A stretch of 64,000 nt of DNA from a phage, in the NCBI GenBank assembly GCA_025812035.1, contig GCA_025812035.1_4719.1. One strand, written 5' to 3'. The stretch's first letter is position 1. Each line of letters starts with the position of its first letter. Position numbers and translations under genes: made by a program. The notes beneath the pieces were generated by a model. That model was not told the origin of the DNA. It made no database searches and worked only from the letters and a program-made list of their open reading frames with translations. Below are positions 7,314-60,992 of the stretch, piece by piece.

Positions 7314-9857
7314 TTACTGCTCTTCACGTTCCAACAGATACTCGGAAGCGGTAATACCATTTACCGTACGTACTGCTTTCAGACGAGTATCATCGTTCAG
7401 AATCACGGTAACAGACTGTAGACCTTTTACTTTGGTCTCGAAGGTCTTGAACACCTGATCCAGCATACGAGCAATGCTTGGGTTGGTTGCAGCTGACGCG
7501 TGAGTGTAACCGCTCTGGTTCAGATTCAGAATCTTGGCATTGGTCGGTACGCGAACAACAACATGCGGACGCATAGCGAACACGCTGTGATTGAACCAGT
7601 AAGCATCGTTGCTGTCTTCGTCAGTGACGATGTCTGGATTAACACGCATATCCTCAACAGCCGCATCAGCCAAACGACGTTCGATTTCGTCAGCGTCCAG
7701 AGAGCCATCTTTCTCCAGTTCTGCACGATACTCACTCATGGCAACCAAATGACGTTCACGATTCACCGTAGATTTTTCGTGAGCGACTTTCAGGTAGTCA
7801 TGCATGTTGTACAGTTCTGCCATAGACAGACGAATGTTCCACTGACCATCACCGTCACGGTTGCAGTAGAGACACTTCAGCATGTTGACCCAGGTATGGT
7901 AGCAATTGGAGAACTCATCTTCAATAAACTTCTGATCCATTTTAAGATCGTGAATCAGCCAGCCGGACAGTTCTCCGATATCATCAACGAAGCTAGAGAT
8001 GGTGGTTTCAGAGAAGTCCTTCGGTACGATACGTTTGATCAACTTGTTGACGTCTTTGGTCATGCTATCGTTCAGGAAATGCCAAATACGCAGAGGAATG
8101 ACATCTCGATACTGTTGCATGATCTGACGATAAGCCGCAATATCGTCGCTACGACCTTTATCAATAGACAACGCATCCAGGAATTCATGGATAGCATCCA
8201 GCTCTTTGTCGGTATAAGTTCCCAGATAGGAATTGACCGTGGCAAGGAATGCTAATGCGTCGTTTTGGTTGACGTCGGTGTTGGTCTGCTGGATGATCGC
8301 CACAGCAGCTTTGGTTTCAGCATCCTCAACGCTCGATGCTGCGATCGCATCGGTAACGGTAAACAGTTTCATTTCGCGTTGTTCGCCGACAACGATTGGT
8401 TCACGTTGAACCGGTTTGTTGAGGCTAACGCGGACAACCTCCGATTGCGCGATGCGGTCCAGTTTTATCATTTCCTGCTCTGCCATACGACGAGCGGTTG
8501 GATCTGATTCAAGTTCGATGTATTCCACTTCTTCCTCCGTGAGGGATGTAATGTCAACAATGGTTTCATGAAGAATTCCGTTTTCGTCGATACGTGCTCG
8601 ACGAGCGAAGTGCCTGAAGTCATACAACGTTGGCCAGCGACAATTAGGTGCGTAGTCTTTGGCCTTCAGACGCATCTGCATAAATTCTTCATGTTGAACA
8701 ACACGACCGTAACGCTTAGCATCTTCGGTCGCATCAATGGGATTAACGGTCTTTGTTGCCGTAGCGGAACGAACCGTACGGATGGGTTCCGGTTTAGTCT
8801 GCACAGGTTCAGGTTGAACAGGTTTCTGCTGTCCAGACTTAACATGCCATTCGGGTTCTTCGTACCGTTCAGCGAACTGTTCGGCTGCTGCAAAGATATC
8901 GTTGATACCACCGACGTCTCCTTCGGGATTCGTCGAGTAGATACGTGGTTGTGGTGCCTCGTAACGCGGCGCTGTGGTAGCAGGTGCATCATCAACGATA
9001 GGATCATCACCAACATCATACAAACGGTTGAACGCACAATCCTTCGAATCAATGTACGATGGAGCTTGTGGTTGAACAACCGTCGGTCGAGGTTGTGCGC
9101 CGTATCCTGGCATCGTTGGAGCCATACCACGCATAACCGCTGGACTCGGTTGGTATTGCGGTTGCGGATAGGTTCCATATGCAGGTTGCTGCGGTTGACC
9201 GTACCCGGTGCTGGCCATCGCATTTGCTTGTGGTCCGCGATACGTCATTCCCATCTGCATCACCTGTTGCTTCAAACCACGCGATTTTTGCGCGATTTGC
9301 GCCAGGCTCCCGTTTTTATTGAGCTGTGTATACTTATTCGCGGCTTCCGGGTTAACGCGTGATAACTCAATCGCACGATAATACTCCGGGTATTGATTAG
9401 GTTCAAAGAGCCACGTTACAAGATGATACAGCGCAACCGTGCTCACGGCAGCAGTGACGATCTGGTCGGTGGACGCATTCTGCGGCATCGGGTTGATGTA
9501 AGAGAATACGTTCCAGCAGCAATCTTCAACAAGCGATTCCATCATCATATCGCTATTGGTATAACGCGCGACGAAATCGGTTTGTATCTTATCTTGCTGT
9601 GCGAAGTCTTTCAAGACGTTAAAGATAGCCTGACGGATTTTGACGATCGTTGCTTCTTGGGTGATGAAGTTATAGTTCTGCTGATACGCCGGTTGCTGGT
9701 ATTGTGGTGGTTGATAGGTGTTATTCGGGTATGGGTTGTACGGCGGTTGCTGGTATTGTTGCTGACGTACCTGCTCCGCGGCATAATTAATCGTGCTCGC
9801 ATAAGGGTTTTCGCTATAGCCCATTTGCTGGTACATGTTGTTACTACCATTATACAT
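7314..9857 (-). CDS. hypothetical protein (847 aa) with Gln/Tyr/Pro/Asn-rich low-complexity regions
   Basis: ORF track; AAAGGAT SD; N-terminal ~70 aa (MYNGSNNMYQQMGYSENPY...QQQYQQPPYNPYPNNTYQPPQYQQPAYQQNYNF) and internal GYGQPQQPAYGTYPQPQYQPSP segment. Confidence 0.65.
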   Translation of the reverse strand: MYNGSNNMYQQMGYSENPYASTINYAAEQVRQQQYQQPPYNPYPNNTYQPPQYQQPAYQQNYNFITQEATIVKIRQAIFNVLKDFAQQDKIQTDFVARYTNSDMMMESLVEDCCWNVFSYINPMPQNASTDQIVTAAVSTVALYHLVTWLFEPNQYPEYYRAIELSRVNPEAANKYTQLNKNGSLAQIAQKSRGLKQQVMQMGMTYRGPQANAMASTGYGQPQQPAYGTYPQPQYQPSPAVMRGMAPTMPGYGAQPRPTVVQPQAPSYIDSKDCAFNRLYDVGDDPIVDDAPATTAPRYEAPQPRIYSTNPEGDVGGINDIFAAAEQFAERYEEPEWHVKSGQQKPVQPEPVQTKPEPIRTVRSATATKTVNPIDATEDAKRYGRVVQHEEFMQMRLKAKDYAPNCRWPTLYDFRHFARRARIDENGILHETIVDITSLTEEEVEYIELESDPTARRMAEQEMIKLDRIAQSEVVRVSLNKPVQREPIVVGEQREMKLFTVTDAIAASSVEDAETKAAVAIIQQTNTDVNQNDALAFLATVNSYLGTYTDKELDAIHEFLDALSIDKGRSDDIAAYRQIMQQYRDVIPLRIWHFLNDSMTKDVNKLIKRIVPKDFSETTISSFVDDIGELSGWLIHDLKMDQKFIEDEFSNCYHTWVNMLKCLYCNRDGDGQWNIRLSMAELYNMHDYLKVAHEKSTVNRERHLVAMSEYRAELEKDGSLDADEIERRLADAAVEDMRVNPDIVTDEDSNDAYWFNHSVFAMRPHVVVRVPTNAKILNLNQSGYTHASAATNPSIARMLDQVFKTFETKVKGLQSVTVILNDDTRLKAVRTVNGITASEYLLEREEQ

Positions 9858-13346: not shown

Positions 13347-13403
13347 TCACCTAGGTAATGTAAGCGTCAAATTTTTTCTATTTGCAACGATAAACAGCAT
13401 AGA
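13347..13403 (-). promoter_or_regulatory. conserved intergenic element, copy 1 (candidate promoter, partly diverged)
   Basis: Shares TCACCTAGGTAAT(G/A)TA and ACAGCATAGAA ends with the copies at 21507 and 59630; sits between a terminator hairpin and the next minus-strand gene. Confidence 0.35.
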
Positions 13404-13437
13404 AGCCTCCCCCAACCCTTGCGGGCTGAGGGAGGCT
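13404..13437 (-). terminator. hairpin terminator downstream of the capsid-candidate gene
   Basis: Stem AGCCTCCC/GGGAGGCT with inner CCC-TTGC-GGG; on minus strand followed by TTCTATGCTGTTTATCG. Confidence 0.55.
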
Positions 13438-13534
13438 GACTTATGTATCACGGTGCCGGATGAATGTCCGGTGCAATGAAACCATCTGCAACGTTGTCGT
13501 CAAGAATATCATCCAACGAAGCAGCTACGGTAGT

Positions 13535-15757
13535 TCAGTTAGTCTGAACCGGCAGCTTGATGTTTTCAGTGTAGACCTTACGCAGGTTCACGACGTTAAT
13601 CAGACCCAGCAGCGGGCAGTTGTTAACGAAGCGGCAGCGCGGCTGAACCATGGTTTCTTTAGAAACCTGACCGTTACGGGTAACCTGAGCAACAGATACC
13701 AGTTCCGGTACATACAGGAACATACCGAAGGTCAGCGGATCCGGAGAACCCTGGATACCACGAGACAGGGTCACGAAGATCTTATCACGCAGCAGGACGT
13801 TCGGGTTATCTACAACCACGAAGTTGAAGCTTACACCAACGGTACGGAAATCACCATCGGTCTGCAGGAACTGCGGGATGTAGTTGTCGGTTGCTACTAC
13901 GCAACGCGGTTTCTCATCAGCGTTGGAAGACAGCAGCTGCAGAGCTGGCTGATAACCAGACTCAGAGTACATGCGGTATGCCATCTCACGAATCACGTTC
14001 ATGATCGCAGCGGACACTTCAGCACGACGTTCTGCAGTGGTGGTACCCTGAACGGATTTCGCCAGGTCCAGGTTGATTTCTTCGAACCACGGACGGATCA
14101 GGTAACGACCGAAACCTTCGATCTGGATGTCACCGAACTGACGGAAGCGAGAGGTCGCAACTGCTTTCAGTGCGTCTTTGTAGCTGAACAGTTTCTCAAC
14201 CATCAGGTTGTCGAAACGTGCGTTAGCCGCTTGGATCAGAACGTCCAGGTCAGCAGCGTTTTCTTCCCAATCAAGCGGACGAGGAATGGAGAACGGAGCC
14301 AGCAGACCGATTGCGTAACGCTCTTGCTTCATGTTGAAGTCAAGGTGCTTACCACGTTCACGACGGTTGCTGTTGTTACGACGGATACGCAGTTCGTAAC
14401 CAACCAGTTTGAAGCTCAGGTCGTCAGCCAGGTCTTTGAATTCTTGGCTCTTACGCGGCTGTTCGATGTTGTCCTGATCAACCAGGCGATACAGTTCAGC
14501 GTTAGCGCCGTTAACACGCAGACCCGCTTTCTCTACGTTGGAAGAACCGTAAACTTCGATAGCCAGCTGAGCAGCGGATTTCGCATCGATGATGTCCTGC
14601 AGCGCTTCGGCTTTCGCACCTTTAACGTCAACGGTGTTCTCATCAACGAAGATGGAGTGAGTGTCGAACGCCAGGGTCATTTTGCGGAAGTCGCCTTCCA
14701 GAGATTTCTGGAAACCGTTGGTGATCAGACCGGATACGTCGAACGGAACGTAAGAGGTTTTGCTGTGCTTAGCGGATTTGATTTCCACCAGGATTTTGGT
14801 CAGCGTGATCTGAGCATCCAGCGCGTCGGTGTTGTCGCTGTAACCGTTAGCCAGAATGCTATCGTCTTCAGCGATACCGATCATGTCGATCAGTTTATCA
14901 ACAGCCAGGTAAGACGTTTTATAAGTTACGCCTTTAATTTCGATGTCACGCGGAGCAACGATAGCTTTGTCAACGAAGTACTGCGCGTTAGCATCGTCAG
15001 CACGATAGATCGGGTGCAGGTCGGTCACGTCGTTGGACAGAACGTCGTTGTACATGAACGCGTCCAGCAGCGGACGACGTACCCAATCAGCCGGAGTACC
15101 GTCAGCGTTACGACGCAGATGGTTGAATACCAGCGGACGACGGAAAGATACGTCATAACCGATCTGGTTCGGAGCCAGAACGATGGTGTTGTACAGTTCG
15201 TTACCCATGCGGCTCAGACGAGAAGCCTTCACGTTGAACACAACGGAGTACGGCATCATGTCGCGCAGTTCTTTCTGGTCGTAGGACAGCTGAACCAGTT
15301 CTTCAGATTCGCAACCGCAGGAATCAGCAGCCATCATGACGAAGTTAGAGCTGTCAACTTCACGACCTGACGGAGTGGTGCTGATGTTCATGGAACGTGC
15401 TTGTTTAGCGTATTCCACCGGGTTACCATGAGCCAGCATGATCAGTGCTGCTGCACGAGCCTGCTGTGCGTTCATGGTGAACAGCTGTTCTTCAATACGC
15501 TGCTTCTCTTCCGGAGTGGTGGTTTCGAAGCCCAGCATAGACAGAACCGGTTCTTCTGCTTTACGGATGTCGCTGCTGAAGCTCTTAACATCCATATCGT
15601 TAACCAGTTTGTCCATGGATTTGAAATCAACCTTAGAAGCAGATTCCATAGACAGGAAGGTGTTTTCCAGACCTTTGTCTGCTGGTTTGCTACCATTAGC
15701 GGTCAGGAACTGGCGAGTGGCCGCGACCTGCTGGCTAAGAAGGGTTTTATCATTCAT
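13535..15757 (-). CDS. candidate major capsid protein (740 aa); tail sheath not excluded
   Basis: Strongest codon bias in the window (CGT/CTG/ACC/GGT-rich), implying very high expression; length matches the ~740-750 aa major capsid proteins I recall for phiKZ-like phages; AAAGGA SD; acidic N-terminal region with S-x-E motifs; no homology search run. Confidence 0.5.
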   Translation of the reverse strand: MNDKTLLSQQVAATRQFLTANGSKPADKGLENTFLSMESASKVDFKSMDKLVNDMDVKSFSSDIRKAEEPVLSMLGFETTTPEEKQRIEEQLFTMNAQQARAAALIMLAHGNPVEYAKQARSMNISTTPSGREVDSSNFVMMAADSCGCESEELVQLSYDQKELRDMMPYSVVFNVKASRLSRMGNELYNTIVLAPNQIGYDVSFRRPLVFNHLRRNADGTPADWVRRPLLDAFMYNDVLSNDVTDLHPIYRADDANAQYFVDKAIVAPRDIEIKGVTYKTSYLAVDKLIDMIGIAEDDSILANGYSDNTDALDAQITLTKILVEIKSAKHSKTSYVPFDVSGLITNGFQKSLEGDFRKMTLAFDTHSIFVDENTVDVKGAKAEALQDIIDAKSAAQLAIEVYGSSNVEKAGLRVNGANAELYRLVDQDNIEQPRKSQEFKDLADDLSFKLVGYELRIRRNNSNRRERGKHLDFNMKQERYAIGLLAPFSIPRPLDWEENAADLDVLIQAANARFDNLMVEKLFSYKDALKAVATSRFRQFGDIQIEGFGRYLIRPWFEEINLDLAKSVQGTTTAERRAEVSAAIMNVIREMAYRMYSESGYQPALQLLSSNADEKPRCVVATDNYIPQFLQTDGDFRTVGVSFNFVVVDNPNVLLRDKIFVTLSRGIQGSPDPLTFGMFLYVPELVSVAQVTRNGQVSKETMVQPRCRFVNNCPLLGLINVVNLRKVYTENIKLPVQTN

Positions 15758-15906
15758 TGAAAGTATCCTTTACAGAATTAACTTATATAAGTCGGTCGAT
15801 AGACCATAGCGTACACGCGTGCATGCGCCACTATAGTATCAGTAAACACTTACCGTTGTTTAGGCTGTGATACAACACTAAAAATGCCGCATAACTTTTT
15901 CCTACG

Positions 15907-16527
15907 TCACAAACGACGCAGGCGATAATGGATGGAACGATTGGTGCAATATGAACGGAACAGCGGCAATTGCGCAACTTCCGCAAGACTCATATTAATT
16001 CGCAGGTGTTCAATAACGGCGCTGTAGTTATCAGCAATACGATCGCTCAATAACTCTTCTGCCAATAAAGGAAGACAATCGACAACAATCGCGATCATAT
16101 CCTCATTAACATAACGCACCCGAACACTCAACGGACGTTTGTCTGGGCTGTAAGTTGGATCCGCCAAACGACGTTCAATATCACGCGGATAGCTCGTCAG
16201 TAAATGGTAGTAACCATTATCATAACGATTGATGTACTCACACAGCACATCAACATTCTTTTCTGGCGGCAAACCTGTTTCGTCATAGTGATACGCAAAC
16301 ATACCACCAAGCAGGTTGTTAAGATGAACTGCAGGGTTCGCTTGTTCGTGTTCTTTCGTGATGAAGAAAGGCACGTTCTGAGCTGCGAAATAAAAACCTA
16401 CATCATTGGGCGATAGTATGCCGAAAAGACTTTTAGGATCCAACAGCACCTGTAAGTCATCACGCGCATTTCGAATGATTGCGTGTTCTACCCAATTCGG
16501 AACGACGAGATATCGGAGTTCCTTCAT
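15907..16527 (-). CDS. hypothetical protein (206 aa)
   Basis: ORF track; AGAGGT SD 8 nt upstream of ATG; divergent from the helicase gene. Confidence 0.55.
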   Translation of the reverse strand: MKELRYLVVPNWVEHAIIRNARDDLQVLLDPKSLFGILSPNDVGFYFAAQNVPFFITKEHEQANPAVHLNNLLGGMFAYHYDETGLPPEKNVDVLCEYINRYDNGYYHLLTSYPRDIERRLADPTYSPDKRPLSVRVRYVNEDMIAIVVDCLPLLAEELLSDRIADNYSAVIEHLRINMSLAEVAQLPLFRSYCTNRSIHYRLRRL

Positions 16528-19609: not shown

Positions 19610-19683
19610 CGTTTTACCTTTCTATGTTAGGTGGGTTGCGGATAGAAGAATCAATGCATAGACTGATTTAAGTTTGTTAAGGT

Positions 19684-20586
19684 TTACTTAGTCTTCGAGT
19701 TACAAGGACTGACCTGTTGTTGTACTCGTTGAATTGTGTCGTAGTACGGGTTAGATTGGTTGAACATGTTGTTGTGTGGATGATAGCCGTATGGCGCATT
19801 TTGCCTTGTTGATGAGAAACCTTGTTGAGAAGGACGATTTGAATTAACCGCGAGTACGTAGTAAACCAAATTTTGACGGTCGAACGTTCCTTCGTTTTTG
19901 AAGGTGTCGGCGTAGGTGCTTATCGCTGGAGCGAGTCTATCACCATCGGCGGTAATAATTGTACCGTCTGGGTAAACTTCACGAACGACGCACCATGTTC
20001 CGATAAGAACGTCTTTGGGTGGCGTATTGCCGTATCCGGTTGTAACGGTAAGGTAAGTATCGAACCCTTCAGAACAACAAGGATGACGATAGATAGGTCC
20101 TGTCATTTCCGTTCTATCGGTATCATCGCATTTCTCTATTGAGAGCGATGATGTGTCGGTTTTGAAATTGTCAAATTCTTTCTTTAAGTCGATTACAGGT
20201 TCTTTCGTATAGTACTTCTTGATTGCTTTGACGTAAAGATCAGGAACGGTTGTCAGCATTCCGTTATACCTGATTCTCAGGTTTTCGAGTAATCCAAAGA
20301 TACTCGCGCATGCTTGTTCGCGAGGTTTTGTAAGATAAGAGATCCCCCCAGGAACGCTGGGATCTTTGAGAAAGAAGATTGCGTTATTGTCGTTGTGTGG
20401 TGCATTGAAGAAAACGATTGATTCGATATATACGGAGCATAGGCTGTCGTTGGCGTCGTCAGATAACACCCAGATGCACTCATCGGTCGTCTTGTTTAAA
20501 AGTTCTGTTTTGTCCACCAAACGTTGTTTCATTGCGAGGAAATGTGCCTGTTGTTCAGCGGATAATTCACGATAAATAGTGGTCAT
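19684..20586 (-). CDS. hypothetical protein, paralog A of a tandem pair (~300 aa)
   Basis: ORF track 19684..20664; ATG 20584-20586 with AAGGAG SD; shares IYRHPCCSEGFDTYLTVTTGY...REVYPDGTI core with the next gene. Confidence 0.6.
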   Translation of the reverse strand: MTTIYRELSAEQQAHFLAMKQRLVDKTELLNKTTDECIWVLSDDANDSLCSVYIESIVFFNAPHNDNNAIFFLKDPSVPGGISYLTKPREQACASIFGLLENLRIRYNGMLTTVPDLYVKAIKKYYTKEPVIDLKKEFDNFKTDTSSLSIEKCDDTDRTEMTGPIYRHPCCSEGFDTYLTVTTGYGNTPPKDVLIGTWCVVREVYPDGTIITADGDRLAPAISTYADTFKNEGTFDRQNLVYYVLAVNSNRPSQQGFSSTRQNAPYGYHPHNNMFNQSNPYYDTIQRVQQQVSPCNSKTK

Positions 20587-20671
20587 ACTCGGCTCCTTGA
20601 TTACGATAAGGATGATTGCGGTTTTGTGATGCTGGTAGGGCCCTAAACAAAGGAGCCCTACCAATATTGGG

Positions 20672-21451
20672 TTACTCAGGATCGGCGTAGAAATGATGGG
20701 GATAGCCGGAGTACGATCCCGCGTTACCGGCTATGGATTTTTTCTGGGAATCGACGACGAGCGCATAGAACTGTCGGGAATTTGTTAGCGTTGAGAAATA
20801 AGAGGAAAGGACTTTTTCATTCAACGCATCGCAAGGTAGACAGGTGCGACCGCAAAACGTCACAATACGACCGTCAGGATAGATCTCACGAATCATTCTC
20901 CATTCGCCGATATCAACCGGCGATGGCGCTGCTACAGCACCCGTTATTGTTAAGTAACGATCGTACGTGGTGTGGCATTCTGGATGAATGTAGATCGGTT
21001 GGGTATCAGTGCTTTCGTTTTCTACCTGATCTTTGCTTACGTATACCTCAAGATAAATCGTTGGTAGTCCGGTTAGAACGCCGGTATCGCGACGTTTTTT
21101 GGTAATCCGGGGACGGATATTATCGAGCACACCTTCCAGTTTTTCTGCGATTTCGTCAGCCGGTAATATATACCCGTATGTTGGTTCTAGATCATCATCG
21201 TGACTGAATAAGATACGACAGTCGTTGTTATTTTCTGGTGCTTCAGGCGGAAAGATGATGGCTTGAACCGTATGACGTTCTGCGATATAAAATCCTTCAG
21301 GTCCCTCAGTTTTGGTAAGTGTAAAGGACCAGGATGAATGATCTTCAAGTGATGTGCCTTCCAGGAAAAAGTTCGTCCGGATTGGTGCGTCCCATTTTGT
21401 GATCATATTGGCGTGACCGATAGCGCCTAACTTTTGATAAATATCTGTCAT
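20672..21451 (-). CDS. hypothetical protein, paralog B of a tandem pair (~260 aa)
   Basis: ORF track 20672..21547; ATG 21449-21451 with GAGGA SD; core IYIHPECHTTYDRYLTITG...REIYPDGRI matches the upstream gene. Confidence 0.6.
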   Translation of the reverse strand: MTDIYQKLGAIGHANMITKWDAPIRTNFFLEGTSLEDHSSWSFTLTKTEGPEGFYIAERHTVQAIIFPPEAPENNNDCRILFSHDDDLEPTYGYILPADEIAEKLEGVLDNIRPRITKKRRDTGVLTGLPTIYLEVYVSKDQVENESTDTQPIYIHPECHTTYDRYLTITGAVAAPSPVDIGEWRMIREIYPDGRIVTFCGRTCLPCDALNEKVLSSYFSTLTNSRQFYALVVDSQKKSIAGNAGSYSGYPHHFYADPE

Positions 21452-26906: not shown

Positions 26907-29900
26907 TTACTTGTAGGCACCGCAATGTGCTTTGATGAGGAAAAGCACCGCTTGCATCGGCTTATTGAACTGCTGCCATAACGTCAATGCAGGATGGAAC
27001 AACCAATCTTCCAGGCCAAGAACAATACCATAGTTAACGACATTATTAACATCGTTCTCAACGTTGAGTTCGCTATCCAGGAATTTATCGATTGAACGCA
27101 GGGTCTGCATGGCGTTGTCAGCGATGAGCCAAGCCTCATGCGCTTCACGAGCCGCACGTAGCAACGCATCCAGCTCGCTGACGCTGGCTACCGGTAATTC
27201 CTCGCTGGTGAGGTCGTCAGAAACCGTGAAGCTGCGGTTGATACCGGTATAGATCCACTGCATCAGTTTCGCTGCTTCCTCGTTCGGGTTGTTACGCGTT
27301 GTCGCATAGGTTGCGCTCACCTTCACGATATGCGTTTCACCGAGATACGCTTTGGAACCAACACCTTTACGATCGCTGTCTTTCCATGGCTGTACGGTAG
27401 CAACCATAAGCTTATCCCATTTCTGGATAGGAATACGCTTCAGACCAACAACCGAGCCAGTGGACGTGTCGGACTGGTTGCTCTTCCGCACTTCGCTGAG
27501 CTCACGATCGATAGCGACGATTAATTCGCGTGCCATGTTACCGAGCATTTTGATTTCACCCAACGCAGCGATGAGTTTCTTCACATCGGTAACAGGCTCA
27601 CCACCGATGGTAAGATGACGGATGAATCGTTTCAGAATAATCCGTTCCGCAGCTGGGTTACCGTGACGCGCTTTAGCTAGTGCTTGCTGTGTTTCGGCGA
27701 ACAGCTTATCCCATGGAGCCGTAGCAGCAGTGTAGTAACGGTGATTGGTTTCGATCCAATTCCCGATACGGTTAACCGCGTTCTTAACGGTATCCATGAA
27801 TCCTTCCATCGCGATTTCGGTAGCTTCAACGTTACCCCGGAAGTTATCAGGACCGATCTCGCGTGCCGCTACCAGAATACCTTCCACCGCACTTACCGCA
27901 TGGCGACCGATAGCCAGATTTCGCTGTGCTTCTTCAGCACGCTCAACGAATTCCACCACAGCCGGATCGTCAACGATTTCCGCTTCGGCAACAGCACGTG
28001 TACCTGCATCGCCTTCCAACGTCTCGATGGTGACAACAGGATCGTTTTCACCAGCAACGTCCTGATACTCTTCCTGTTTGAGATCGCCGTTATCAGCCGC
28101 TGCGACAGCGGTGAGTATACGGACAGTAACATCGCCGAGTTCTTTCGCTGCGAATCCGTAGACGGTGCATGCTGTTGTCGCAAAGTTCATCAGCGTACGT
28201 GTACGTTTAACGATGTAACCAACACCATAATCGCTACCGCTCTTATCGATGTCGCGGATTAACTGTTCAGCCGTCTCCTGAAGTTGAGTAGCTGCTTTCA
28301 GAAGGTTTTCGTCAAACAGTTTCGTTGATGCACTGATCAGCATTTCAACGCTGACATTGGACGGCACAGCATCGTCCTGCTGTTTCATGGCGCTAAGTTC
28401 GTCACGGAACTTACGAATACCGTCTAAAGCGGCATCGGCGTTATGTCCGAATGCGGCTACGCCCGACATTGTTGTTGCTGACAACATATCCGAATCGGCG
28501 TTTGGACTTTCGCCTTCTTTAAGATCCTTCAATTGGTCGAAGAATTTACGGGACGCGTCGGCAATACGTTTACTGTCTTTGACTGCGTTTACGATTTTAT
28601 CGACCGATTTAGCATCGTTCGCAAGCAGCGTATCGAGCTTGTTCCATTCGACGTCGACTTTCTTCGCATCCGCAGTATTACTCGGCGGAGGAAGCAGTTT
28701 CATCACTGGCGTTGTGCGTTGTTCTTTGGTGAGCTTACCAGCCTTCTCATCGATTTTCTTTTTACTAACACCGAAGAGCTTTCTTAGGCGTGCTACGAGG
28801 GCTTTTAAGAACTTCACAACCGCTTCGTAAACCGACTTCAGGATCTGCTTAAAGCGACCTGGCTGTTTTTCCCCGTCTTCCAGATTGAGATCGCTGTTCA
28901 ATGCGATATCAAGCTGTTTGTACGATTCCATGATGTATTCGTCTTTGATTTCAGGACGAATCTCGAAGCTTTCCATCGGACCTTCAGCCGGACGGAATTC
29001 CATTTTCAGTTCGCCTTGCAGGGTAGGGTCGACAATAGCGATAGCTTCGCCCTGGCCATCCGCATTAAAACGTTCAGCGTAACGAGTACGACGAACGATA
29101 ACGCTCTTATCCCCTTCAAAACGACGTACCACCATGGTGCCTGGAATGTACGGTTGTTCTGTTTCGATAACGGTAACGCCTGTTTCACCTTCACCGAGAA
29201 TAACGGAGGCCTGCTGCTCAACAACAGGAACATCTAAAACACCACGTGCTTCCAGCTCTTGACGAATTTCGAACGACTCTTGTTTCAGATCTTCATCTTC
29301 TTCGTTTTCGTCGTCTTCATCGTCGTCACCTTCGGTGTTTTCATTACCCTCGGTGGTTGTGGTGTCTGTGTTGGTAGGTTCTTCGGACGCAGGTTCGGTG
29401 GTGCTGTCTTCGGCAGGCGTTTCGTCAGCGTTATCGACGTCAACATCACCTTGCAGCTCCGTTTCTTGAGCAACTGCTTCGGCTTTCTGCTCGCCGGTAT
29501 TGCCGTCATTAGCGTCAACAACCGGTTGTTCGTCAGCGACGGTATCTTCAACCTTTTCTACTTTCTCCACGACGCGTTTAATCACGGTGACTTTGATGGG
29601 TTCTTCCGTCGTTTTGGTTTCTGGTGTTACATCGGCTGCCGTGGCTGTTGTTTCAGCTGCAGGTTCTTCTTTTTCCGGTTCGACGACATTACCTTTAACC
29701 CCTTGGGTGGTTTCTGCCGGTTGCGCAGCCTGTTCGATTTGTGCCGGGTTGGTTGGATCGATGGCGTTAGCCGCATCCTGAATCTTGTTCTTCAGGTTGT
29801 CGCGGTCAGCGCTGATGGTCGGGTCATTGGTCACTTTCGGTGCCGGTGTTTCGGTCGGTGCGTTTGCCGGATACGGGTTCTTCGGTTCTTCGCCTGGTGC

Positions 29901-30272
29901 GGTCGGTACCGCGATCAGAACGAACGGCTGAACATCGTTACCGTCTTCCATGGTTACACCGCCGTTACTTGGTGTGAAACGAATGCGCAAACTCCCATCA
30001 ATAGGACGGGTTACAATAACAGCACGTACGACGTCTTCACCGTTCTCATCCGTGCTACGAATCACACGAACGGCATCATCAACGGTGGTCCCTTCCTCGA
30101 GCGTATCTGATTCGATCGTCGCTTCGATGCTGTCTGGCCGTGCCGCGGTAGGTAACGCGATCACTTGCTCTTCTTTATCGGTAGAAAGCGTTGCTTTGAC
30201 TTCGATAGGGGTATCGCCGCTTTCCAGGTTAAGATGCGACTTACGCATCAGATCAGCTAACGATTTTTTCAT
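26907..30272 (-). CDS. large virion-type protein (1121 aa) with internal acidic Thr/Glu/Asp-rich linker; member of the EGF-helix paralog family
   Basis: ORF track; AAGAGGAA SD; ~120-aa low-complexity acidic segment (…TEPASEEPTNTDTTTTEGNENTEGDDDEDDENEEDEDLK…); core ESFEIRPEIKDEYIMESYKQLDIAL…VYEAVVKFLKALVARLRKLFG resembles the paralogs at 30.3-36.9 kb. Confidence 0.6.
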   Translation of the reverse strand: MKKSLADLMRKSHLNLESGDTPIEVKATLSTDKEEQVIALPTAARPDSIEATIESDTLEEGTTVDDAVRVIRSTDENGEDVVRAVIVTRPIDGSLRIRFTPSNGGVTMEDGNDVQPFVLIAVPTAPGEEPKNPYPANAPTETPAPKVTNDPTISADRDNLKNKIQDAANAIDPTNPAQIEQAAQPAETTQGVKGNVVEPEKEEPAAETTATAADVTPETKTTEEPIKVTVIKRVVEKVEKVEDTVADEQPVVDANDGNTGEQKAEAVAQETELQGDVDVDNADETPAEDSTTEPASEEPTNTDTTTTEGNENTEGDDDEDDENEEDEDLKQESFEIRQELEARGVLDVPVVEQQASVILGEGETGVTVIETEQPYIPGTMVVRRFEGDKSVIVRRTRYAERFNADGQGEAIAIVDPTLQGELKMEFRPAEGPMESFEIRPEIKDEYIMESYKQLDIALNSDLNLEDGEKQPGRFKQILKSVYEAVVKFLKALVARLRKLFGVSKKKIDEKAGKLTKEQRTTPVMKLLPPPSNTADAKKVDVEWNKLDTLLANDAKSVDKIVNAVKDSKRIADASRKFFDQLKDLKEGESPNADSDMLSATTMSGVAAFGHNADAALDGIRKFRDELSAMKQQDDAVPSNVSVEMLISASTKLFDENLLKAATQLQETAEQLIRDIDKSGSDYGVGYIVKRTRTLMNFATTACTVYGFAAKELGDVTVRILTAVAAADNGDLKQEEYQDVAGENDPVVTIETLEGDAGTRAVAEAEIVDDPAVVEFVERAEEAQRNLAIGRHAVSAVEGILVAAREIGPDNFRGNVEATEIAMEGFMDTVKNAVNRIGNWIETNHRYYTAATAPWDKLFAETQQALAKARHGNPAAERIILKRFIRHLTIGGEPVTDVKKLIAALGEIKMLGNMARELIVAIDRELSEVRKSNQSDTSTGSVVGLKRIPIQKWDKLMVATVQPWKDSDRKGVGSKAYLGETHIVKVSATYATTRNNPNEEAAKLMQWIYTGINRSFTVSDDLTSEELPVASVSELDALLRAAREAHEAWLIADNAMQTLRSIDKFLDSELNVENDVNNVVNYGIVLGLEDWLFHPALTLWQQFNKPMQAVLFLIKAHCGAYK

Positions 30273-35521: not shown

Positions 35522-35553
35522 CCCCTCTCCCAACCCGTAAGGGAAGGGAGAGG
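35522..35553 (-). terminator. hairpin terminator of the CCCTCC family
   Basis: CCCTCTCCC-AACCCGTAAGGGAA-GGGAGAGGG; followed on minus by U-rich TTTATGCCGTTCTGGTTTATCTTTTG. Confidence 0.6.
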
Positions 35554-35576
35554 GAATATATCAGTTTATTAACCGA

Positions 35577-36905
35577 TTATTGCTGTGCTGCGTCAGCCGG
35601 TTTCTCAGCCGCCTGGCCGCCGTACTCTTTCAGCATTTTAGCAGCGCCATCCAGTACAGCATTACCTGCCTGAACACCGTACTTCATCAGGCCGGTCTGC
35701 GGATTCACGTAGCAGGAACGTGCGTCTTTCAGAGCAGACAGTACAGCTTGAACACGCTGTTTTTCCTGAGCGGAAACTTCGCCTTTCTTAGACAGATCAG
35801 CTTCCATATCGTCGCCGAATTTAACAGCGTCTTTGAAGCCCTGGGATTTCTTACCGATGTTGCCTTTCAGCGCCAGCAGTTTGTCAGCCAGTACTTCAAC
35901 ACTGCTAACTGCGGCAGCCAGCTGATTCAGAGACAGTACAGTTGCTTCAACTTCTTTCGCTTCACCGGAACGTTCCCAGGTTACTTTACCGTCGTTGGTT
36001 TTGAAACCCCAACCCGCCGGGCCAGCAACGTCAGCAATCGCCGGTGCGTTCAGTTTATCTGCGTACTCGGTGTGGGACTTAGCAACAACGGTGTTGACGA
36101 ATTTATCAGCACGGTCGTCAGCAGCCTTCATTGCTTTCTCGAAGGTGTCAGCGATTTTAGTTGCACCGGTAACCAGATCGTCACCGCCGATATAACCTGA
36201 AACGCCGCTACCCAGTTTAACTTTGGCATTTTTAGCAGCGCCTTTACGTTTGGCGATCATTTCTTTCAGTTTAGCGGCACGTGCTTTCAGTTTGGTTGCG
36301 CCGTCGAAGATACGATCCATGAACTTCACGAAGGTTTCCCAGGAAGTTTTCAGGAAGTTCTTGATGGTTGCCCACAGTTTCTGCCACCATTTTTGTTCTT
36401 CCAGGAAGATCATGTTGGTTGCATCGTAACGGGAAGCGGAGCCACCGAAGCTTTCGAAGGACGGCATGGTTTCCGGCAGTTTGAAACCGATAGTACCACA
36501 CAGGCGTTTCAGGTTACGCATGTGTTCCTGAGCGGTTTGTGCAGACATACCACCGTCTTTCAGGTAGCTTTCGGTTGCAACAACGGTTTCCGTCAGTTCG
36601 TCCATGGCTTCGTCCATGGCTTCTGCGGTTTCGTCGTCTTTTGCAATTTCGATAACAACAGCATCAACCTGCTCGATATCGCCACGAACTTCGATAGCCA
36701 GTTCGGTTTCAGCTGCGGTATCTTCAGCGATTTCAGCGCGTTCGGTCAGTTCAGCTACAACGGTTTCATCATCTGCTGCTGCTGCGGCATCAGCTGCCGG
36801 TTCTGCTTCAACGGTTGCCGCTGCATCCGGATCGATCTCAGCAGCCAGTTGAACCAGCTGTGCGTTAGATGGATTTGCGACAAGACGATCAAAAATAGAA
36901 GGCAT
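35577..36905 (-). CDS. paralogous virion protein 5 (442 aa), very highly expressed by codon usage, Ala/Glu-rich N-terminal region
   Basis: ORF track; AAAGGAAA SD; codon bias like the capsid candidate; core ESFGGSASRY…WWQKLWATIKNFLKTSWETFVKFMDRIF. Confidence 0.65.
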   Translation of the reverse strand: MPSIFDRLVANPSNAQLVQLAAEIDPDAAATVEAEPAADAAAAADDETVVAELTERAEIAEDTAAETELAIEVRGDIEQVDAVVIEIAKDDETAEAMDEAMDELTETVVATESYLKDGGMSAQTAQEHMRNLKRLCGTIGFKLPETMPSFESFGGSASRYDATNMIFLEEQKWWQKLWATIKNFLKTSWETFVKFMDRIFDGATKLKARAAKLKEMIAKRKGAAKNAKVKLGSGVSGYIGGDDLVTGATKIADTFEKAMKAADDRADKFVNTVVAKSHTEYADKLNAPAIADVAGPAGWGFKTNDGKVTWERSGEAKEVEATVLSLNQLAAAVSSVEVLADKLLALKGNIGKKSQGFKDAVKFGDDMEADLSKKGEVSAQEKQRVQAVLSALKDARSCYVNPQTGLMKYGVQAGNAVLDGAAKMLKEYGGQAAEKPADAAQQ

Positions 36906-36948
36906 AATTTGTTTCCTTTACAATAAATTGCACATTAGCTAATGCGGC

Positions 36949-47531: not shown

Positions 47532-50336
47532 TTACGCTAATTTACCGAAACCGGCTTTCTGTAGTTTCTCGTTGATCAGTTTTGCTTCAGCGAAAACATA
47601 ATCACGATATGCGGTAACTAACCCATCCACCCGTGAACGCAAGGCTTCTTCGAAGCTATACCACGCAGCGATTTCACGAATCTGAGCGTTGATATAATCA
47701 ACGGTTGAGCGAAGCTCGGTTGCATTTTCTTGCGGGATGGCTTTCACCTGGCGAGCAACGTCATTTAAACGACGGAACTGTGTTTCGATTTCTTTAAACT
47801 TACTGTCAGCAAGTTTGCTGAATTCGTCACCGGAACGAGTAAATAACAGATAGCTGTTGCCATCAAGTGCGGTCGCTAACTGCTGAAGTACATTGGTGTC
47901 CGGATACACAGGAGTACCGCTTTGCAGTACTTTCTCACCGAATTCCGCGAAGTCCTTCGGCGGTAAGTGTGCAGACGTTGTCAATTCGTTGAAACGGAAA
48001 GTCAGCGAACTATCATACAACATCCGGTACGCTTCCATACCCTGTTTCATGGTACCAGCCAGGTTAGCCAGACGCGGAGCAATTTCACCCTCTTTAGCGC
48101 GCTTCTGGTCTTCTAACGCCCCTTCCAGTTCTTTACACTGGTCGTTCAGATACACGATACGATCGGGACGCAGACGACGCATCTCACGAAGAATAGTATC
48201 CAGCTTACCTTCCTGGAAATAACCTAGCGTTAAAGACGTACACGCTTGTTGAAGACGATCGAACACTGGTAAGGTTACCATCTCTTTACGGATACCATCA
48301 ACAATCGCAGAAACAGCCGAAAGTTTCTGTTCTGTGGTTAATGGAACGTCAGAGACCGACTTGCTGGGCGCACCAACAACGTTACGCATTGCGTCGGTAT
48401 CCTCGGTTTTATCAACCTCTTTACGAACATTCTCGTCGGGAACATAAACGTTCGCATTACGTTTTGCCTGTTTGATGGCATCGCTGGCCGCTTTTTCGGT
48501 GGCCGCTACGCTATCGGCACGTTTCTTCAAGAGTTCAATAATCCAAAGCAACAGACGACGAATCGCAGTGTAGGCTGTCGTGATGATGACGCCGATAACA
48601 GCCATCTTCATGATACCGAACGATTCCATGGTCGGCTCTAACGCCTGGTCAGGCATATACCGTTCACGCAGCTCCAGATAGATCTGCTCATCCGGTTTGC
48701 TGATCTCACCACGATGCGAAGTCCGATAGATGGCTTCGTCAATCTCAACAAGATCTTTACGTGCTTGACGGTCTGTTTCGGTCAAATAAGCGCAGCCGGA
48801 TACGTCGTCTTCAAAACTTTCGAACTTAAAGAAATCGACAACCATCTTGGCAAGCGCCTCTTTCTTAGCAGGATCGAGCGTCTTCGCATCTTCTTTTTGC
48901 TTATCCATTTTTTCCTTGAATTTCTCTTTGTAGTCATTCAAGGGTTTTACCGCTCTTGCCCTCAACGCGTTATAGATAGTTTTCCAACTTTCTTCGCGTT
49001 CTAAGATAAGGAAGTAGTTTTTGAGTTCGAAAGCACGGTAACGTGCAACGAGCTGTTCTACCTGAGCATGAGCGAGTTGTACATCCATCAACCAGCGGGA
49101 CAATGCTGAAACCAAACGACTATAAGCAAGCAGCGTTTGATATGTCAGCTTCATGTGTTTCTCGTAGAGTTCAATATCTCCGCCCCGGATATCAGCTGTC
49201 GGGTTCATCTCCTTAGTTGCTTTGAAGACTTGTTCAGCTTCATTCAACACTTGCTCGAACTTGACTTCATTGAACGCGTTGAATGGTTCGGCCAGTTCAT
49301 CCATCTGTTCGTGAAGCTCGCGAACCCAAGCTTCTTTGTGATTACGAATGACCGCATCAGCGTGGAGCACGGTTTGATGTTTCTGTACCCATTCTTCGAC
49401 GATATCTGCCGCTGCAACAACACCCATGTTGTCGGAAATCAACGGAATAACATTGGAGAGCATACCAGCACACGCTGGTGTTTTCCAATGATCGTTTAAC
49501 GCGTTACGGAACGCAATAATGTCCGTCATAGACGTAGTGATATCGAGGAACGTGTTACCGTTACGACTCATGCTTGCGATATTTGCAGCAAACGTCTTTT
49601 GCTGATCTACAACGAATGGAATCAATAGCATCAACCATTCAGCAACGCATTTTGCTTTGTCTTTCAGGTTTTTGTCGGCTATTTCTTTGAGATTGATTGC
49701 GCTACCATAACCCGCAAGTTCGTTATATACGTCGTTCAAGGTCATCTGCTTATCCAGCATTTCTCTGAAACGCGGATAATCTTCCCCTAACGCATCGATG
49801 ACATCTTGGATAACATCGTCAGTTGTGGCGATAAATTTCTTCGCGTCGACTTTAGATTTCCAGACGTGTCGTACCGCTTTCTTGATTCCTTCAAAGATAA
49901 ACGCCCAGATACGCTTGATGAGTTCCCAGACTTTCTTCGCACCATCGACAAACAGTTTAGAGACTTTGGCAACGAATCCTTCCTGCACCAACTCAACGCC
50001 GTTACGTGATGGAATTTCGGTGAAGAAAGCATCCGGCAGTTGTTTCGGGAACGCATCACCAAGACGCATACGCAATTCGGGTACATCGGCACGAGAAATA
50101 CCACGCGTCGTTAGCTGCTCGTGAAGACGAACGTTTTCTTCACCAGAGGCTACGAATTCGTTAACGTCAAATGAAACCAGTTCTTGATCTTCGGTGGTAA
50201 CGACGCTTGAACCATCACTGGTTTGGATGTCTTCGTCAGGGAATGCCATGAGCATACCGTGACGCATTTCAACCACCCCGTAATCGGTTGCTAAACCGAA
50301 TTCGTTGTGATCGGGGGTAATAACTGGGATACTCAT
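47532..50336 (-). CDS. large virion-type protein (934 aa) with two copies of the EGF/ESF + amphipathic-helix motif
   Basis: ORF track; motifs VQEGFVAKVSKLFVDGAKKVWELIKRIWAFIFEGIKK and MESFGIMKMAVIGVIITTAYTAIRRLLLWIIELLKK resemble the paralog family. Confidence 0.6.
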   Translation of the reverse strand: MSIPVITPDHNEFGLATDYGVVEMRHGMLMAFPDEDIQTSDGSSVVTTEDQELVSFDVNEFVASGEENVRLHEQLTTRGISRADVPELRMRLGDAFPKQLPDAFFTEIPSRNGVELVQEGFVAKVSKLFVDGAKKVWELIKRIWAFIFEGIKKAVRHVWKSKVDAKKFIATTDDVIQDVIDALGEDYPRFREMLDKQMTLNDVYNELAGYGSAINLKEIADKNLKDKAKCVAEWLMLLIPFVVDQQKTFAANIASMSRNGNTFLDITTSMTDIIAFRNALNDHWKTPACAGMLSNVIPLISDNMGVVAAADIVEEWVQKHQTVLHADAVIRNHKEAWVRELHEQMDELAEPFNAFNEVKFEQVLNEAEQVFKATKEMNPTADIRGGDIELYEKHMKLTYQTLLAYSRLVSALSRWLMDVQLAHAQVEQLVARYRAFELKNYFLILEREESWKTIYNALRARAVKPLNDYKEKFKEKMDKQKEDAKTLDPAKKEALAKMVVDFFKFESFEDDVSGCAYLTETDRQARKDLVEIDEAIYRTSHRGEISKPDEQIYLELRERYMPDQALEPTMESFGIMKMAVIGVIITTAYTAIRRLLLWIIELLKKRADSVAATEKAASDAIKQAKRNANVYVPDENVRKEVDKTEDTDAMRNVVGAPSKSVSDVPLTTEQKLSAVSAIVDGIRKEMVTLPVFDRLQQACTSLTLGYFQEGKLDTILREMRRLRPDRIVYLNDQCKELEGALEDQKRAKEGEIAPRLANLAGTMKQGMEAYRMLYDSSLTFRFNELTTSAHLPPKDFAEFGEKVLQSGTPVYPDTNVLQQLATALDGNSYLLFTRSGDEFSKLADSKFKEIETQFRRLNDVARQVKAIPQENATELRSTVDYINAQIREIAAWYSFEEALRSRVDGLVTAYRDYVFAEAKLINEKLQKAGFGKLA

Positions 50337-50773
50337 GCATTCTCTCCTTGCAGTGCGTTAGCGAAAGCCGTTGCGAGTTGCGCAACCAGCTTAGGATCAA
50401 CACCTTCGATAACGTCAGGCAGCCCTGCGGTTTCTTGGTCACGAACAGCGGAGGCTAATAACAGCATGGTTTCAGGTGCGGTTGGCTCATGCACCATGCG
50501 GTAACGCAGGCACCAGAAGTAGCGGGCAACGTCTAACGCATCAGTCAGCCCAATAACCAGTACCTTGTTCAGCTTATCCAACCCGTCACGGATTTTAGGG
50601 AGATGTTCACGAACGAAGATGCTATCCGCAGTCAGATCTTCTTTTTCAGCGAATACTGGCATGCTGTAACCGGCGATGTAACCTGCAGCAATACTTAATG
50701 CGCGGGTCTGTTGTTCGGCTGGGAAGTCACGTACCAGGTCTTTCAGCTGAACGGCGAAATCAGAAATATTCAT
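50333..50773 (-). CDS. hypothetical protein (146 aa)
   Basis: ORF track; 4-nt overlap with downstream gene. Confidence 0.55.
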   Translation of the reverse strand: MNISDFAVQLKDLVRDFPAEQQTRALSIAAGYIAGYSMPVFAEKEDLTADSIFVREHLPKIRDGLDKLNKVLVIGLTDALDVARYFWCLRYRMVHEPTAPETMLLLASAVRDQETAGLPDVIEGVDPKLVAQLATAFANALQGENA

Positions 50774-54170: not shown

Positions 54171-54188
54171 TGGAGGTTTTATGTGTTT

Positions 54189-54638: not shown

Positions 54639-54648
54639 TGATGCTCCT

Positions 54649-55158: not shown

Positions 55159-55162
55159 TTCT

Positions 55163-55615: not shown

Positions 55616-55645
55616 CGATTCTGTTCCTGTTATAGTCAGTATAAA

Positions 55646-55681
55646 CCCTCCTTCCCTAGCCATCAAGGCCGGGGAAGGGGG
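55646..55681 (-). terminator. imperfect hairpin inside the small-paralog array
   Basis: CCCTCCTTCCC…GGGGAAGGGGG with mismatches; lies between members 3 and 4. Confidence 0.4.
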
Positions 55682-55693
55682 TATGTGCGTTAT

Positions 55694-56101: not shown

Positions 56102-56138
56102 TTTTTATCCTTAATGTTACCGGTTTAGAAATATTATT

Positions 56139-56903: not shown

Positions 56904-56905
56904 GA

Positions 56906-57825: not shown

Positions 57826-57894
57826 TTTAGCACCTTCGATACCTTTTAACCGACACGTGCCCCACTTAACAAGGGACACGAAGTCGTTGATTAA

Positions 57895-60353: not shown

Positions 60354-60992
60354 TTATGCAAAGCGACGCATGTAACCTGCCAGGTAGTTACGTGTATCGA
60401 AGTAGGCAATTTCAGGAATTGCGATATTAAGGTCGATAGCACGGATTTCAACCTGGCGACGGCTTTCATCATAGATCGCATCCATCAGACGCAGTACTGT
60501 CAGGAAAGCCATGCGGGTATGGTAGTCCAGCGGCATGTTATCGATGCCACGATACAGGTAACGATTTGCGTTGAATGCCCCTTCGCTGTTATCTTTCCAG
60601 ATCTTCAGAATATCAGCAAAGGCGGTGCGGAAAACCTCAGGATTATCCACATCCAGTAACGCACGGAAAGCAGACATTAAAGATCGCTGATGACGGATCA
60701 AGGACTGCGGCGTTTGCGGCATGGTCGGACCCATTTCTTCCGCATATTTCTGGAACGGGGCAACCAGGGTTGCGGCGCGAGAAGCAACGATAGAAATAGC
60801 AGGCGATTCATTCACCGCTGGTTTCGCAGGCTTTTCTTCAACTGCGGTTTCCTTCTTCTCAACAACGACCGTTTTCGGTTGTGCTACAACGTTGTTGGTC
60901 GGAGCAGCAGCCGCACCATTTTCCACGGCGGTCTCTACTGCTGTAATCTTTTCGTCCATTTGTGCGGAACGTTGGTCTTTATTCTTGCTCAT
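60354..60992 (-). CDS. hypothetical protein (212 aa), highly expressed by codon usage, Lys/Glu/Ala/Pro-rich N-terminal region
   Basis: ORF track; AAAGGAAA SD; codon bias similar to the capsid candidate. Confidence 0.6.
   Translation of the reverse strand: MSKNKDQRSAQMDEKITAVETAVENGAAAAPTNNVVAQPKTVVVEKKETAVEEKPAKPAVNESPAISIVASRAATLVAPFQKYAEEMGPTMPQTPQSLIRHQRSLMSAFRALLDVDNPEVFRTAFADILKIWKDNSEGAFNANRYLYRGIDNMPLDYHTRMAFLTVLRLMDAIYDESRRQVEIRAIDLNIAIPEIAYFDTRNYLAGYMRRFA

Follow-up and report, generated by a model that had tools for sequence, protein, structure and literature searches.

The genes for three abundant virion proteins of the phage analyzed here, the major capsid protein, an internal head protein and an outer capsid decoration protein, prefer the codons of their host, and we attribute this, with a probability of about 0.9, to classical translational selection whose strength scales with the number of copies needed. 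The genes lie in a window of 64,000 nucleotides, the whole stretch of DNA that was analyzed, whose source is, as judged by sequence comparison, an undescribed close relative of the nucleus-forming E. coli jumbo phage Goslar (Chimalliviridae). Nucleotide identity to Goslar (vB_EcoM_Goslar, NC_048170) is 89–94% in blocks, and several indels and replaced segments between the two mark the window as a separate lineage; gene order, codon bias and the assigned roles of the three gene products are shared. The Goslar orthologs are gp41, gp58 and gp77, with amino acid identities of 98.6%, 98.0% and 97.6%, respectively. Neither the window nor Goslar contains tRNA genes, and an Rfam search of the window returned no RNA family. 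Note that codon usage is not mentioned in the searchable Goslar literature, including a preprint of 2026 (bioRxiv 10.64898/2026.04.21.720040). The three genes, whose coordinates an earlier note on this DNA had given correctly, are:

13535..15757, minus strand: major capsid protein gene, Goslar gp41 ortholog, 740 aa (Pfam PhiKZ_MCP, PDB 11BT), the most codon-adapted gene of the window
35577..36905, minus strand: PF12699 (phiKZ_IP) internal head protein gene, Goslar gp58 ortholog, 442 aa (Pfam PF12699)
60354..60992, minus strand: outer capsid decoration protein gene, Goslar gp77 ortholog, 212 aa (PDB 11FG), with moderate codon bias

Codon adaptation indices (CAI) were calculated for each gene against a reference set of 29 E. 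coli K-12 genes, namely those for ribosomal proteins, tufA and fusA. With values of 0.811 for the capsid gene, 0.769 for the gp58 ortholog and 0.566 for the gp77 ortholog against a window median of 0.377 (MAD-sd 0.053), the three genes differ clearly from the background, and the first two score at least as high as 27 of the 29 genes in the host set. The corresponding Nc values are 29.2, 32.3 and 42.8, compared with about 50 in neighbouring genes. When synonymous codons were drawn from the background usage of the window while the protein sequence was kept fixed, 2000 resamples yielded z scores of 26.4, 16.2 and 4.9, and not one of them matched the observed bias of the capsid gene and the gp58 ortholog. 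The codon bias is thus real but graded across the three genes: the assertion that all of them use a restricted codon set unlike their neighbours holds strongly for the first two, while the gp77 ortholog ranks third in the window and is only moderately biased. Six codons (CGT, CTG, ACC, GGT, GAA and AAA) had been named as characteristic, and among these CTG does discriminate, its share being 0.94, 0.97 and 0.69 in the capsid gene and the gp58 and gp77 orthologs versus 0.22 in the background. The usage of GAA and AAA, however, hardly sets the flagged genes apart from their neighbours, with AAA in the gp77 ortholog even below background (0.45 versus 0.66), and GGT in the gp58 ortholog is at background level (0.52 versus 0.51). 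In the capsid gene the host-optimal codon is preferred for every one of the 18 degenerate amino acids.

The assignment of the capsid protein is based on a match to PhiKZ_MCP (Pfam PF25620; 1.5e-217, 724 bits versus a cut-off of 27, profile positions 2–635 of 635), on matches to phrog_3231 'major head protein' (4e-165) and phiKZ gp120 (8Y6V; 9e-56), and on a full-length match to the 'Major capsid protein' of Goslar in PDB 11BT (1627 bits). Goslar gp41 is present in 1615 copies per virion (bioRxiv 10.64898/2026.04.21.720040). The TGA stop codon of the capsid gene is followed by an in-frame extension of 29 codons, for which the chance expectation is about 1 in 4.

The gp58 ortholog matches PF12699 with 68.2 bits (cut-off 27, profile positions 6–385 of 387) and phrog_5750 'internal head protein' at 5e-9. 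Its 112 N-terminal residues are acidic (net charge -28) and the remainder is basic (+10). The acidic part ends in A-T-E, which fits the pattern of a head-protease site (S/A/G-x-E); its complete removal at E112 is not supported, as virions of Goslar yield a gp58 peptide that spans residues 55–72. The internal proteins IPI–III of T4 are functional counterparts, being packaged in the head in high copy number and delivered with the DNA, but have no sequence relation to the gp58 ortholog. Six PF12699 paralogs, gp53–58, form one cluster on one strand, in which gp58 alone is strongly biased (CAI 0.77) while the other five range from 0.29 to 0.50. The PF12699 proteins of the phiKZ inner body (gp93 and paralogs) are likewise high-copy proteins located inside the head, delivered with the DNA and encoded in a paralog cluster, but several of them are present at about 100–200 copies each, whereas in Goslar a single one dominates, with about 2150 copies of gp58 per virion by label-free quantitation (bioRxiv 10.64898/2026.04.21.720040). 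The same study demonstrated injection of Goslar gp58 into the host by means of GFP fusions and saw no ordered inner body (bioRxiv 10.64898/2026.04.21.720040). It is gp58 that bears the strongest demand, level with that for the capsid shell.

The 212-residue product had been described as lacking a recognisable function, which is refuted by its 97.6% identity to chain A of PDB 11FG, 'Capsid Decorator gp77' (E = 3e-134, residues 1–212 of 212). Goslar gp77 sits on the outer capsid surface between subunits of the major capsid protein, and 60 copies were modelled as opposed to about 430 found by label-free quantitation (bioRxiv 10.64898/2026.04.21.720040); the structure resolves just a single well-occupied site in each asymmetric unit, and the N-terminal 65 or so residues are unmodelled. 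Nor is there support for the further suggestion that its expression matches that of the capsid protein, given a CAI of 0.57 versus 0.81 and a copy number that is several-fold lower. When 50,697 phage records were searched by tblastn with the decorator, homologs turned up in Goslar-like phages only, Goslar being the sole match. Lambda gpD and T4 Soc and Hoc are likewise small accessory proteins bound to the outer capsid, without detectable sequence similarity to the gp77 ortholog, and lambda D shows a similarly moderate codon bias (CAI 0.50 on the same scale).

Independent virion proteomics of the 98% identical Goslar orthologs and the correlation of CAI with copy number support the view that a biased codon usage identifies the products of highest abundance. 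Among the 247 genes of Goslar, gp41, gp58 and gp77 rank 1st, 2nd and 6th in CAI, and further genes at the top, gp214, gp23 and the chimallin gene (5th), also encode abundant proteins. CAI correlates with the published virion copy number genome-wide (Spearman rho 0.60, p = 2e-11, n = 105) as well as among the genes of the window alone (rho 0.67, n = 29), where the copy numbers stem from purified Goslar virions, serve as a proxy for expression and, being label-free, are good to about 50% only. Three other genes of the window come close to the gp77 ortholog in CAI:

50333..50773, minus strand: vertex-binding-complex protein gene, Goslar gp66 ortholog, moderate bias (CAI 0.519, z = 4.0)
26907..30272, minus strand: gene for a large PF12699-type paralog, Goslar gp53 ortholog, moderate bias (CAI 0.503, z = 6.8)
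7314..9857: Goslar gp38 ortholog (CAI 0.493)

The gp66 ortholog, which the earlier note had missed, is biased to a degree comparable to the gp77 ortholog. Label-free quantitation puts Goslar gp66 at about 1014 copies per virion, compared with 110 modelled, and gp53 is present at about 330 (bioRxiv 10.64898/2026.04.21.720040); by mass spectrometry gp66 is thus more abundant than gp77 at similar bias. Mismatches occur in both directions, as gp38 is biased (CAI 0.49–0.50) although a virion holds only about 25 copies of it, and conversely gp158 (about 926 copies), gp208 and gp7 of Goslar are abundant but unbiased.

In the explanation we favor, the mRNAs of a phage without tRNA genes would be decoded by the ribosomes and the tRNA pool of the host. 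Where a protein is in very large demand per infected cell, host-optimal codons would be favored, as elongation would be faster and more accurate and fewer ribosomes would be tied up. Synonymous codons would in this way be pushed toward the set read by abundant E. coli tRNAs, and the strength of the shift would scale with the copies of the protein that each virion needs. Selection would accordingly act via translation, and virion abundance would reflect the rate of synthesis in infected cells. Note that elongation speed, accuracy and codon-dependent mRNA stability are not separated as targets of selection by the present data.

The alternative that fares best, although we still hold it to be improbable, is selection on the mRNA itself, through codon-dependent stability, avoidance of nuclease or defence motifs or export from the phage nucleus, with the translation-optimal codons as a mere correlate. 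It draws on the physical separation of transcription and translation in chimalliviruses, by which mRNAs must survive export (PMC11077065), and on very stable stem-loops 3' of the two most biased genes, which hint that transcript stability matters. The following signals flank the three genes:

15766..15772, minus strand: Shine-Dalgarno-like TAAAGGA, 8 nt upstream of the capsid ATG, presumed ribosome-binding site
36914-36920: TAAAGGA before the gp58 ortholog, presumed ribosome-binding site
61000-61006: GAAAGGA before the gp77 ortholog, presumed ribosome-binding site
13404..13437, minus strand: strong stem-loop about 100 nt 3' of the capsid stop codon (RNA fold -33 kcal/mol, z = -5.3 versus shuffles)
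35523..35554, minus strand: strong stem-loop 23 nt 3' of the stop codon of the gp58 ortholog (RNA fold -27.6 kcal/mol, z = -5.2), a putative functional element

The stem-loop behind the capsid gene is likely to be the 3' end of the transcript or a stabiliser. Scans for sigma-70 promoters and intrinsic terminators around the three flagged genes gave nothing above shuffled expectation, an outcome to be expected of phages that transcribe their genes with RNA polymerases of their own. TATG, a motif described for phiKZ late promoters, was found upstream of several biased genes, but a 4-mer is too short to serve as evidence. Against selection on the mRNA stands the codon set, which equals the optima of host ribosomal genes amino acid by amino acid, as decoding selection directly predicts, and motif avoidance is not needed to explain the pattern. 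The two explanations overlap, and selection on the mRNA does not exclude selection through translation.

Translational selection is further set against a purely compositional origin of the bias in local GC content, strand asymmetry or mutation pressure. It is true that the capsid gene and the gp58 ortholog lie in stretches slightly richer in GC (0.50–0.51 versus about 0.47), and GC3 of the capsid gene is 0.59. From GC3s alone, however, Nc values of 59–60 are predicted for the three flagged genes, as opposed to the observed 29, 32 and 43, and the gp58 ortholog reaches its Nc of 32 at an ordinary GC3 of 0.476, within the range of the window. Optimal codons ending in A or T (CGT, GGT, GCT, GTT, TCT, GAA, AAA) are preferred beside those ending in G or C, both of which a one-directional pressure cannot yield, and no such bias is seen in the same-strand neighbours of the flagged genes. 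The bias is independent of base composition and amino acid content, and the comparison of Nc with GC3, together with the match to the host optimum for each of the 18 amino acids, effectively refutes a compositional cause.

Equally improbable is a recent horizontal acquisition of the three genes from a source whose codons are strongly biased in the manner of E. coli, even though their codon usage departs from that of the rest of the genome and mosaicism is seen in other parts of it. PhiKZ_MCP and PF12699, the families of the capsid and gp58 genes, are chimallivirus-specific, the two genes lie in a block that is syntenic with phiKZ (by annotation and the bioRxiv preprint), and the bias is graded over many structural genes with copy number rather than confined to islands. 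The bias is kept in two more Goslar-like genomes from IMG/VR, for a total of four Goslar-like lineages in which the flanking genes are co-linear. The four most biased genes have a dS versus Goslar of 0.09–0.17, the median being 0.30 (Mann-Whitney p = 0.002). The weight of this observation as proof of selection on synonymous sites is reduced by unbiased neighbours that are equally low, gp42 at 0.084 and gp76 at 0.051, and regional recombination could therefore account for the low dS; over all 41 genes dS and CAI are not correlated (rho -0.10).

The host-adapted codon set has a visible side effect in long open reading frames on the opposite strand, the longest of which the earlier note had placed correctly and rightly regarded as spurious:

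13460..15370, plus strand: spurious 636-aa antisense ORF opposite the capsid gene and in codon register with it
35580-36200 and 36393-36926, plus strand: two spurious in-register antisense ORFs opposite the gp58 ortholog (ORF list, register check)

These frames are long because the rare codons TTA, CTA and TCA are avoided, which removes stops from the codon-aligned antisense frame. Their count is 1 versus 25.9 expected in the capsid gene and 1 versus 11.4 in the gp58 ortholog, and the 636-aa ORF ends at 15370 with a stop that corresponds, on the other strand, to the single TCA of the capsid gene. A real overlapping gene is highly improbable: its 610 stop-free in-register codons do exceed the resampled median of 97 and maximum of 324, and the frame is open in Goslar too, but the lack of the three codons fully accounts for the length, the comparison with Goslar yields 42.5 non-synonymous and 3.5 synonymous differences (dN/dS 3.66, versus 0.08 in the capsid frame), a Pfam search found no family, and the composition, rich in Val (15%) and nearly devoid of Met, Lys, Pro and Trp, reflects the codons of the capsid gene.

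An enrichment of head and tail genes in host-preferred codons was described across many phages by Lucks et al. 2008 (PMC2266997), and we regard the present case as the same phenomenon with the same explanation. On the same scale, CAI values of 0.675 for T4 gp23, 0.633 for T7 gp10A and 0.530 for lambda E are weaker than the 0.81 and 0.77 found here, and T4 possesses tRNA genes, while the present phage does not. This is ordinary translational selection, a well-known effect of low novelty that is seen here in a strong form and leaves the current understanding unchanged. It does indicate that translational codon selection can be very strong despite the separation of transcription from translation by a protein nucleus and the lack of tRNA genes. 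It also confirms that protein abundance in a jumbo phage of mostly hypothetical genes can be ranked by a statistic taken from the sequence only, which is useful for uncultured relatives.

We consider it a tentative and rather doubtful possibility that codon adaptation in this phage family is a quantitative read-out of protein demand, obtained from sequence only, so that mismatches with copy number point to unseen biology. If this were true, the roughly 430 copies of gp77 versus the 60 modelled would correspond to about 7 copies in each asymmetric unit, the majority of which would be flexible or partly occupied, and the gp38 ortholog would, like chimallin, be abundant inside the cell without belonging to the virion.

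Three genes of the window had been singled out in the earlier note for extreme codon bias, and all ORF coordinates reported there were confirmed:

13535-15757, minus strand, 740 aa, capsid gene, ortholog of Goslar gp41
35577-36905, minus strand, 442 aa, ortholog of Goslar gp58, internal head protein
60354-60992, minus strand, 212 aa, ortholog of Goslar gp77, capsid decorator

Wright's Nc is 29.2, 32.3 and 42.8 for these genes, respectively, against 45-61 for most of their neighbours. As the values predicted from GC3s are approximately 59-60, base composition is ruled out as the cause of the bias. On a CAI scale whose relative adaptiveness was derived from E. coli K-12 (29 genes: tufA, fusA and those for ribosomal proteins), the capsid gene scores 0.811, the gp58 ortholog 0.769 and the gp77 ortholog 0.566, with a window median of 0.377. 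The first two are on a par with tufA (0.84) and fusA (0.79), and hardly any ribosomal-protein gene scores as high. When synonymous codons were drawn from the background usage of the window with each protein kept fixed, none of 2000 resamples attained the observed values (z = 26.4, 16.2 and 4.9). The commonest codon in the capsid gene is the E. coli optimum for 18 of 18 degenerate amino acids, and the bias extends over the whole gene length, with just a small dip across the first 50 codons. Both the capsid gene and the gp58 ortholog score above T4 gene 23 (0.675), T7 gene 10A (0.633) and lambda E (0.530), so that 'extreme' is a fair term for these two. The CAI check proposed earlier thus upholds the observation for them, but the bias of the gp77 ortholog is only moderate, resembling that of the gp66 (50333-50773, minus strand; 0.519), gp53 (26907-30272, minus strand; 0.503) and gp38 (7314-9857, minus strand; 0.493) orthologs. 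Two relatives from IMG/VR retain the bias, with CAI values of 0.74-0.78 for the gp58 and 0.55-0.58 for the gp77 orthologs and 0.27-0.48 for flanking genes.

The product of 13535-15757 is the major capsid protein, with a match to Pfam PhiKZ_MCP (1.5e-217) and a full-length match to the solved Goslar capsid protein, gp41, of which 1615 copies form the T=27 shell of the virion (bioRxiv 10.64898/2026.04.21.720040). The gp58 ortholog matches PF12699 (phiKZ internal head proteins) over the curated cut-off; a search for a solved structural relative found none. In Goslar one PF12699 protein, gp58, dominates, with about 2150 copies per virion, and it is injected into the host (bioRxiv 10.64898/2026.04.21.720040). 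The 212-aa product of 60354-60992 has no Pfam family and had been described as lacking a recognisable function, yet it shares 97.6% identity with chain A of PDB 11FG, 'Capsid Decorator gp77'. This small, globular protein sits between two subunits of the capsid protein on the outer face of the shell; the model has one copy per asymmetric unit, at least two more were seen at low contour, and label-free quantitation gave an estimate of about 430 copies (bioRxiv 10.64898/2026.04.21.720040). Chain 7 of PDB 36ZA (147 residues, 60 copies), which matches decorator residues 66-212 (E = 1.4e-94), is labelled 'Inner-peripheral baseplate spoke gp220' despite this match, apparently through a mix-up of names in the composite model as deposited.

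For comparison with abundance, the Goslar genome was assembled and CAI scored for all 247 annotated genes. The six highest values belong to gp41, gp58, gp214, gp23, chimallin (gp246) and gp77, and the top 14 also include tail sheath, tail tube, gp22, gp66 and gp53. CAI correlates with published copy estimates in Goslar (Spearman rho 0.60, p = 2e-11, n = 105), as it does for window genes with the copies of their Goslar orthologs (rho 0.67, p = 7e-5, n = 29), and the five top-CAI genes of the window all code for proteins among the six most abundant in the virion. The PF12699 paralogs gp53-gp58, which share fold, cluster and strand, provide a natural control: CAI is 0.77 for the 2150-copy protein, 0.50 for the 330-copy protein and 0.29-0.47 for those with 50-70 copies. 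The core claim, that bias marks abundant products, is therefore borne out, although with a CAI of 0.566 against 0.811 the 212-aa product does not stand on the level of the capsid protein, as had been proposed. Abundant but unbiased are gp158 (about 926 copies, 0.42), gp208 (about 384, 0.37) and gp7 (about 249, 0.36); biased without high virion abundance are Goslar gp97 (85 aa, 0.56) and gp24 (0.56). These outliers lie outside the window. The gp38 ortholog (847 aa; CAI 0.49, z = 5.1; 6 TTA, CTA or TCA codons against 19 expected), for which no family assignment was found, is clearly biased, yet a virion is estimated to contain only about 25 copies of gp38, and the ortholog may thus be an abundant non-virion protein.

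The 636-aa ORF at 13460-15370 on the plus strand shares its codon register with the capsid gene. In this register an antisense stop arises opposite each TTA, CTA or TCA codon of the sense strand, as its reverse complement, and highly expressed E. coli genes seldom use any of the three. Of these codons the capsid gene has one, against 25.9 expected, and this lone TCA, at 15370, ends the antisense ORF. Between window and Goslar, the antisense frame shows 42.5 non-synonymous and 3.5 synonymous differences (dN/dS 3.66), the capsid frame over the same stretch 9.5 and 35.5 (dN/dS 0.08). With no Pfam family either, the ORF is a by-product, as the earlier note had held. Antisense ORFs facing the gp58 ortholog are likewise in register; those facing the gp77 ortholog are unexceptional.

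By megablast, 13400-16000 has Escherichia phage vB_EcoM_Goslar as sole match (97.5% identity). Since whole-window blastn yields co-linear blocks only 85-94% identical to Goslar and broken by indels, the phage is, judged from these alignments, a distinct Goslar-like, nucleus-forming jumbo phage (Chimalliviridae). Goslar apart, two Goslar-like genomes are present in IMG/VR; neither these nor Goslar are identical to the window. No tRNA gene was found in the window or in Goslar, and the phage therefore relies on the host tRNA pool. At 54180-57916, small minus-strand genes stand in a row, with a GC content of only 0.42 and CAI at the window's minimum (0.27-0.32); this is a variable accessory region, because conservation with Goslar is poor and restricted to patches of 85-87% identity. 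A 1.8-kb segment at 19668-21446 is specific to the window, Goslar having only the small gp047 there; no Pfam family was found for its two ORFs:

19684-20664, ORF of 326 aa
20672-21547, ORF of 291 aa

Conversely, the Goslar DNA polymerase gene is split by a 1.8-kb insertion (Goslar 81186-82966) that encodes gp069, a NUMOD1/HNH endonuclease, and includes a group I intron missing from the annotation (Rfam RF00028, 44.7 bits, E = 1.5e-9, slightly under the gathering score). The window lacks it and has an intact 583-aa ORF at 52339-54090 (plus strand), against 499 aa annotated for Goslar gp068. The gp56 ortholog (32859-34148, minus strand), a head-packaged PF12699-fold paralog, is 76.5% identical to that of Goslar (dS 1.28) among neighbours of 94-98%, and the gp64 ortholog (43845-47450, minus strand) has 74% identity and 1201 aa versus 930 in Goslar (+271 aa); both give the impression of packaged-protein modules that were replaced or evolve fast.

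The capsid gene ends in TGA, the gp58 and gp77 orthologs in TAA. Past the capsid TGA, 29 in-frame sense codons precede another TGA (13448-13537, minus strand), a run kept in Goslar with one synonymous change; as it would arise by chance about once in four, read-through is only remotely possible.

The dS of the four most biased genes versus Goslar (0.09-0.17; median 0.30, p = 0.002) would fit selection at silent sites, but as dS is just as low in gp42 and gp76, neighbours that show no bias, regional recombination is a possible cause as well. For the codon bias itself, classical translational selection is the best explanation: host-preferred codons would be selected in genes whose products are required in very large numbers, as described for phage head and tail genes (Lucks et al. 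2008, PMC2266997). Such selection would act via decoding, with virion copy number presumably mirroring synthesis. A strong Shine-Dalgarno-like TAAAGGA 7-8 nt upstream of the ATG in the biased genes, and very stable stem-loops 3' of the capsid gene and the gp58 ortholog (-33 and -27.6 kcal/mol, z about -5.2), fit high-output expression units, in which they may function. This kind of bias is well known, and the proteins have already been characterised in Goslar, whose literature, as far as searchable, makes no mention of a relation between CAI and abundance; new here are solely its occurrence in an undescribed phage of the Goslar type and the explicit correlation of CAI with abundance.
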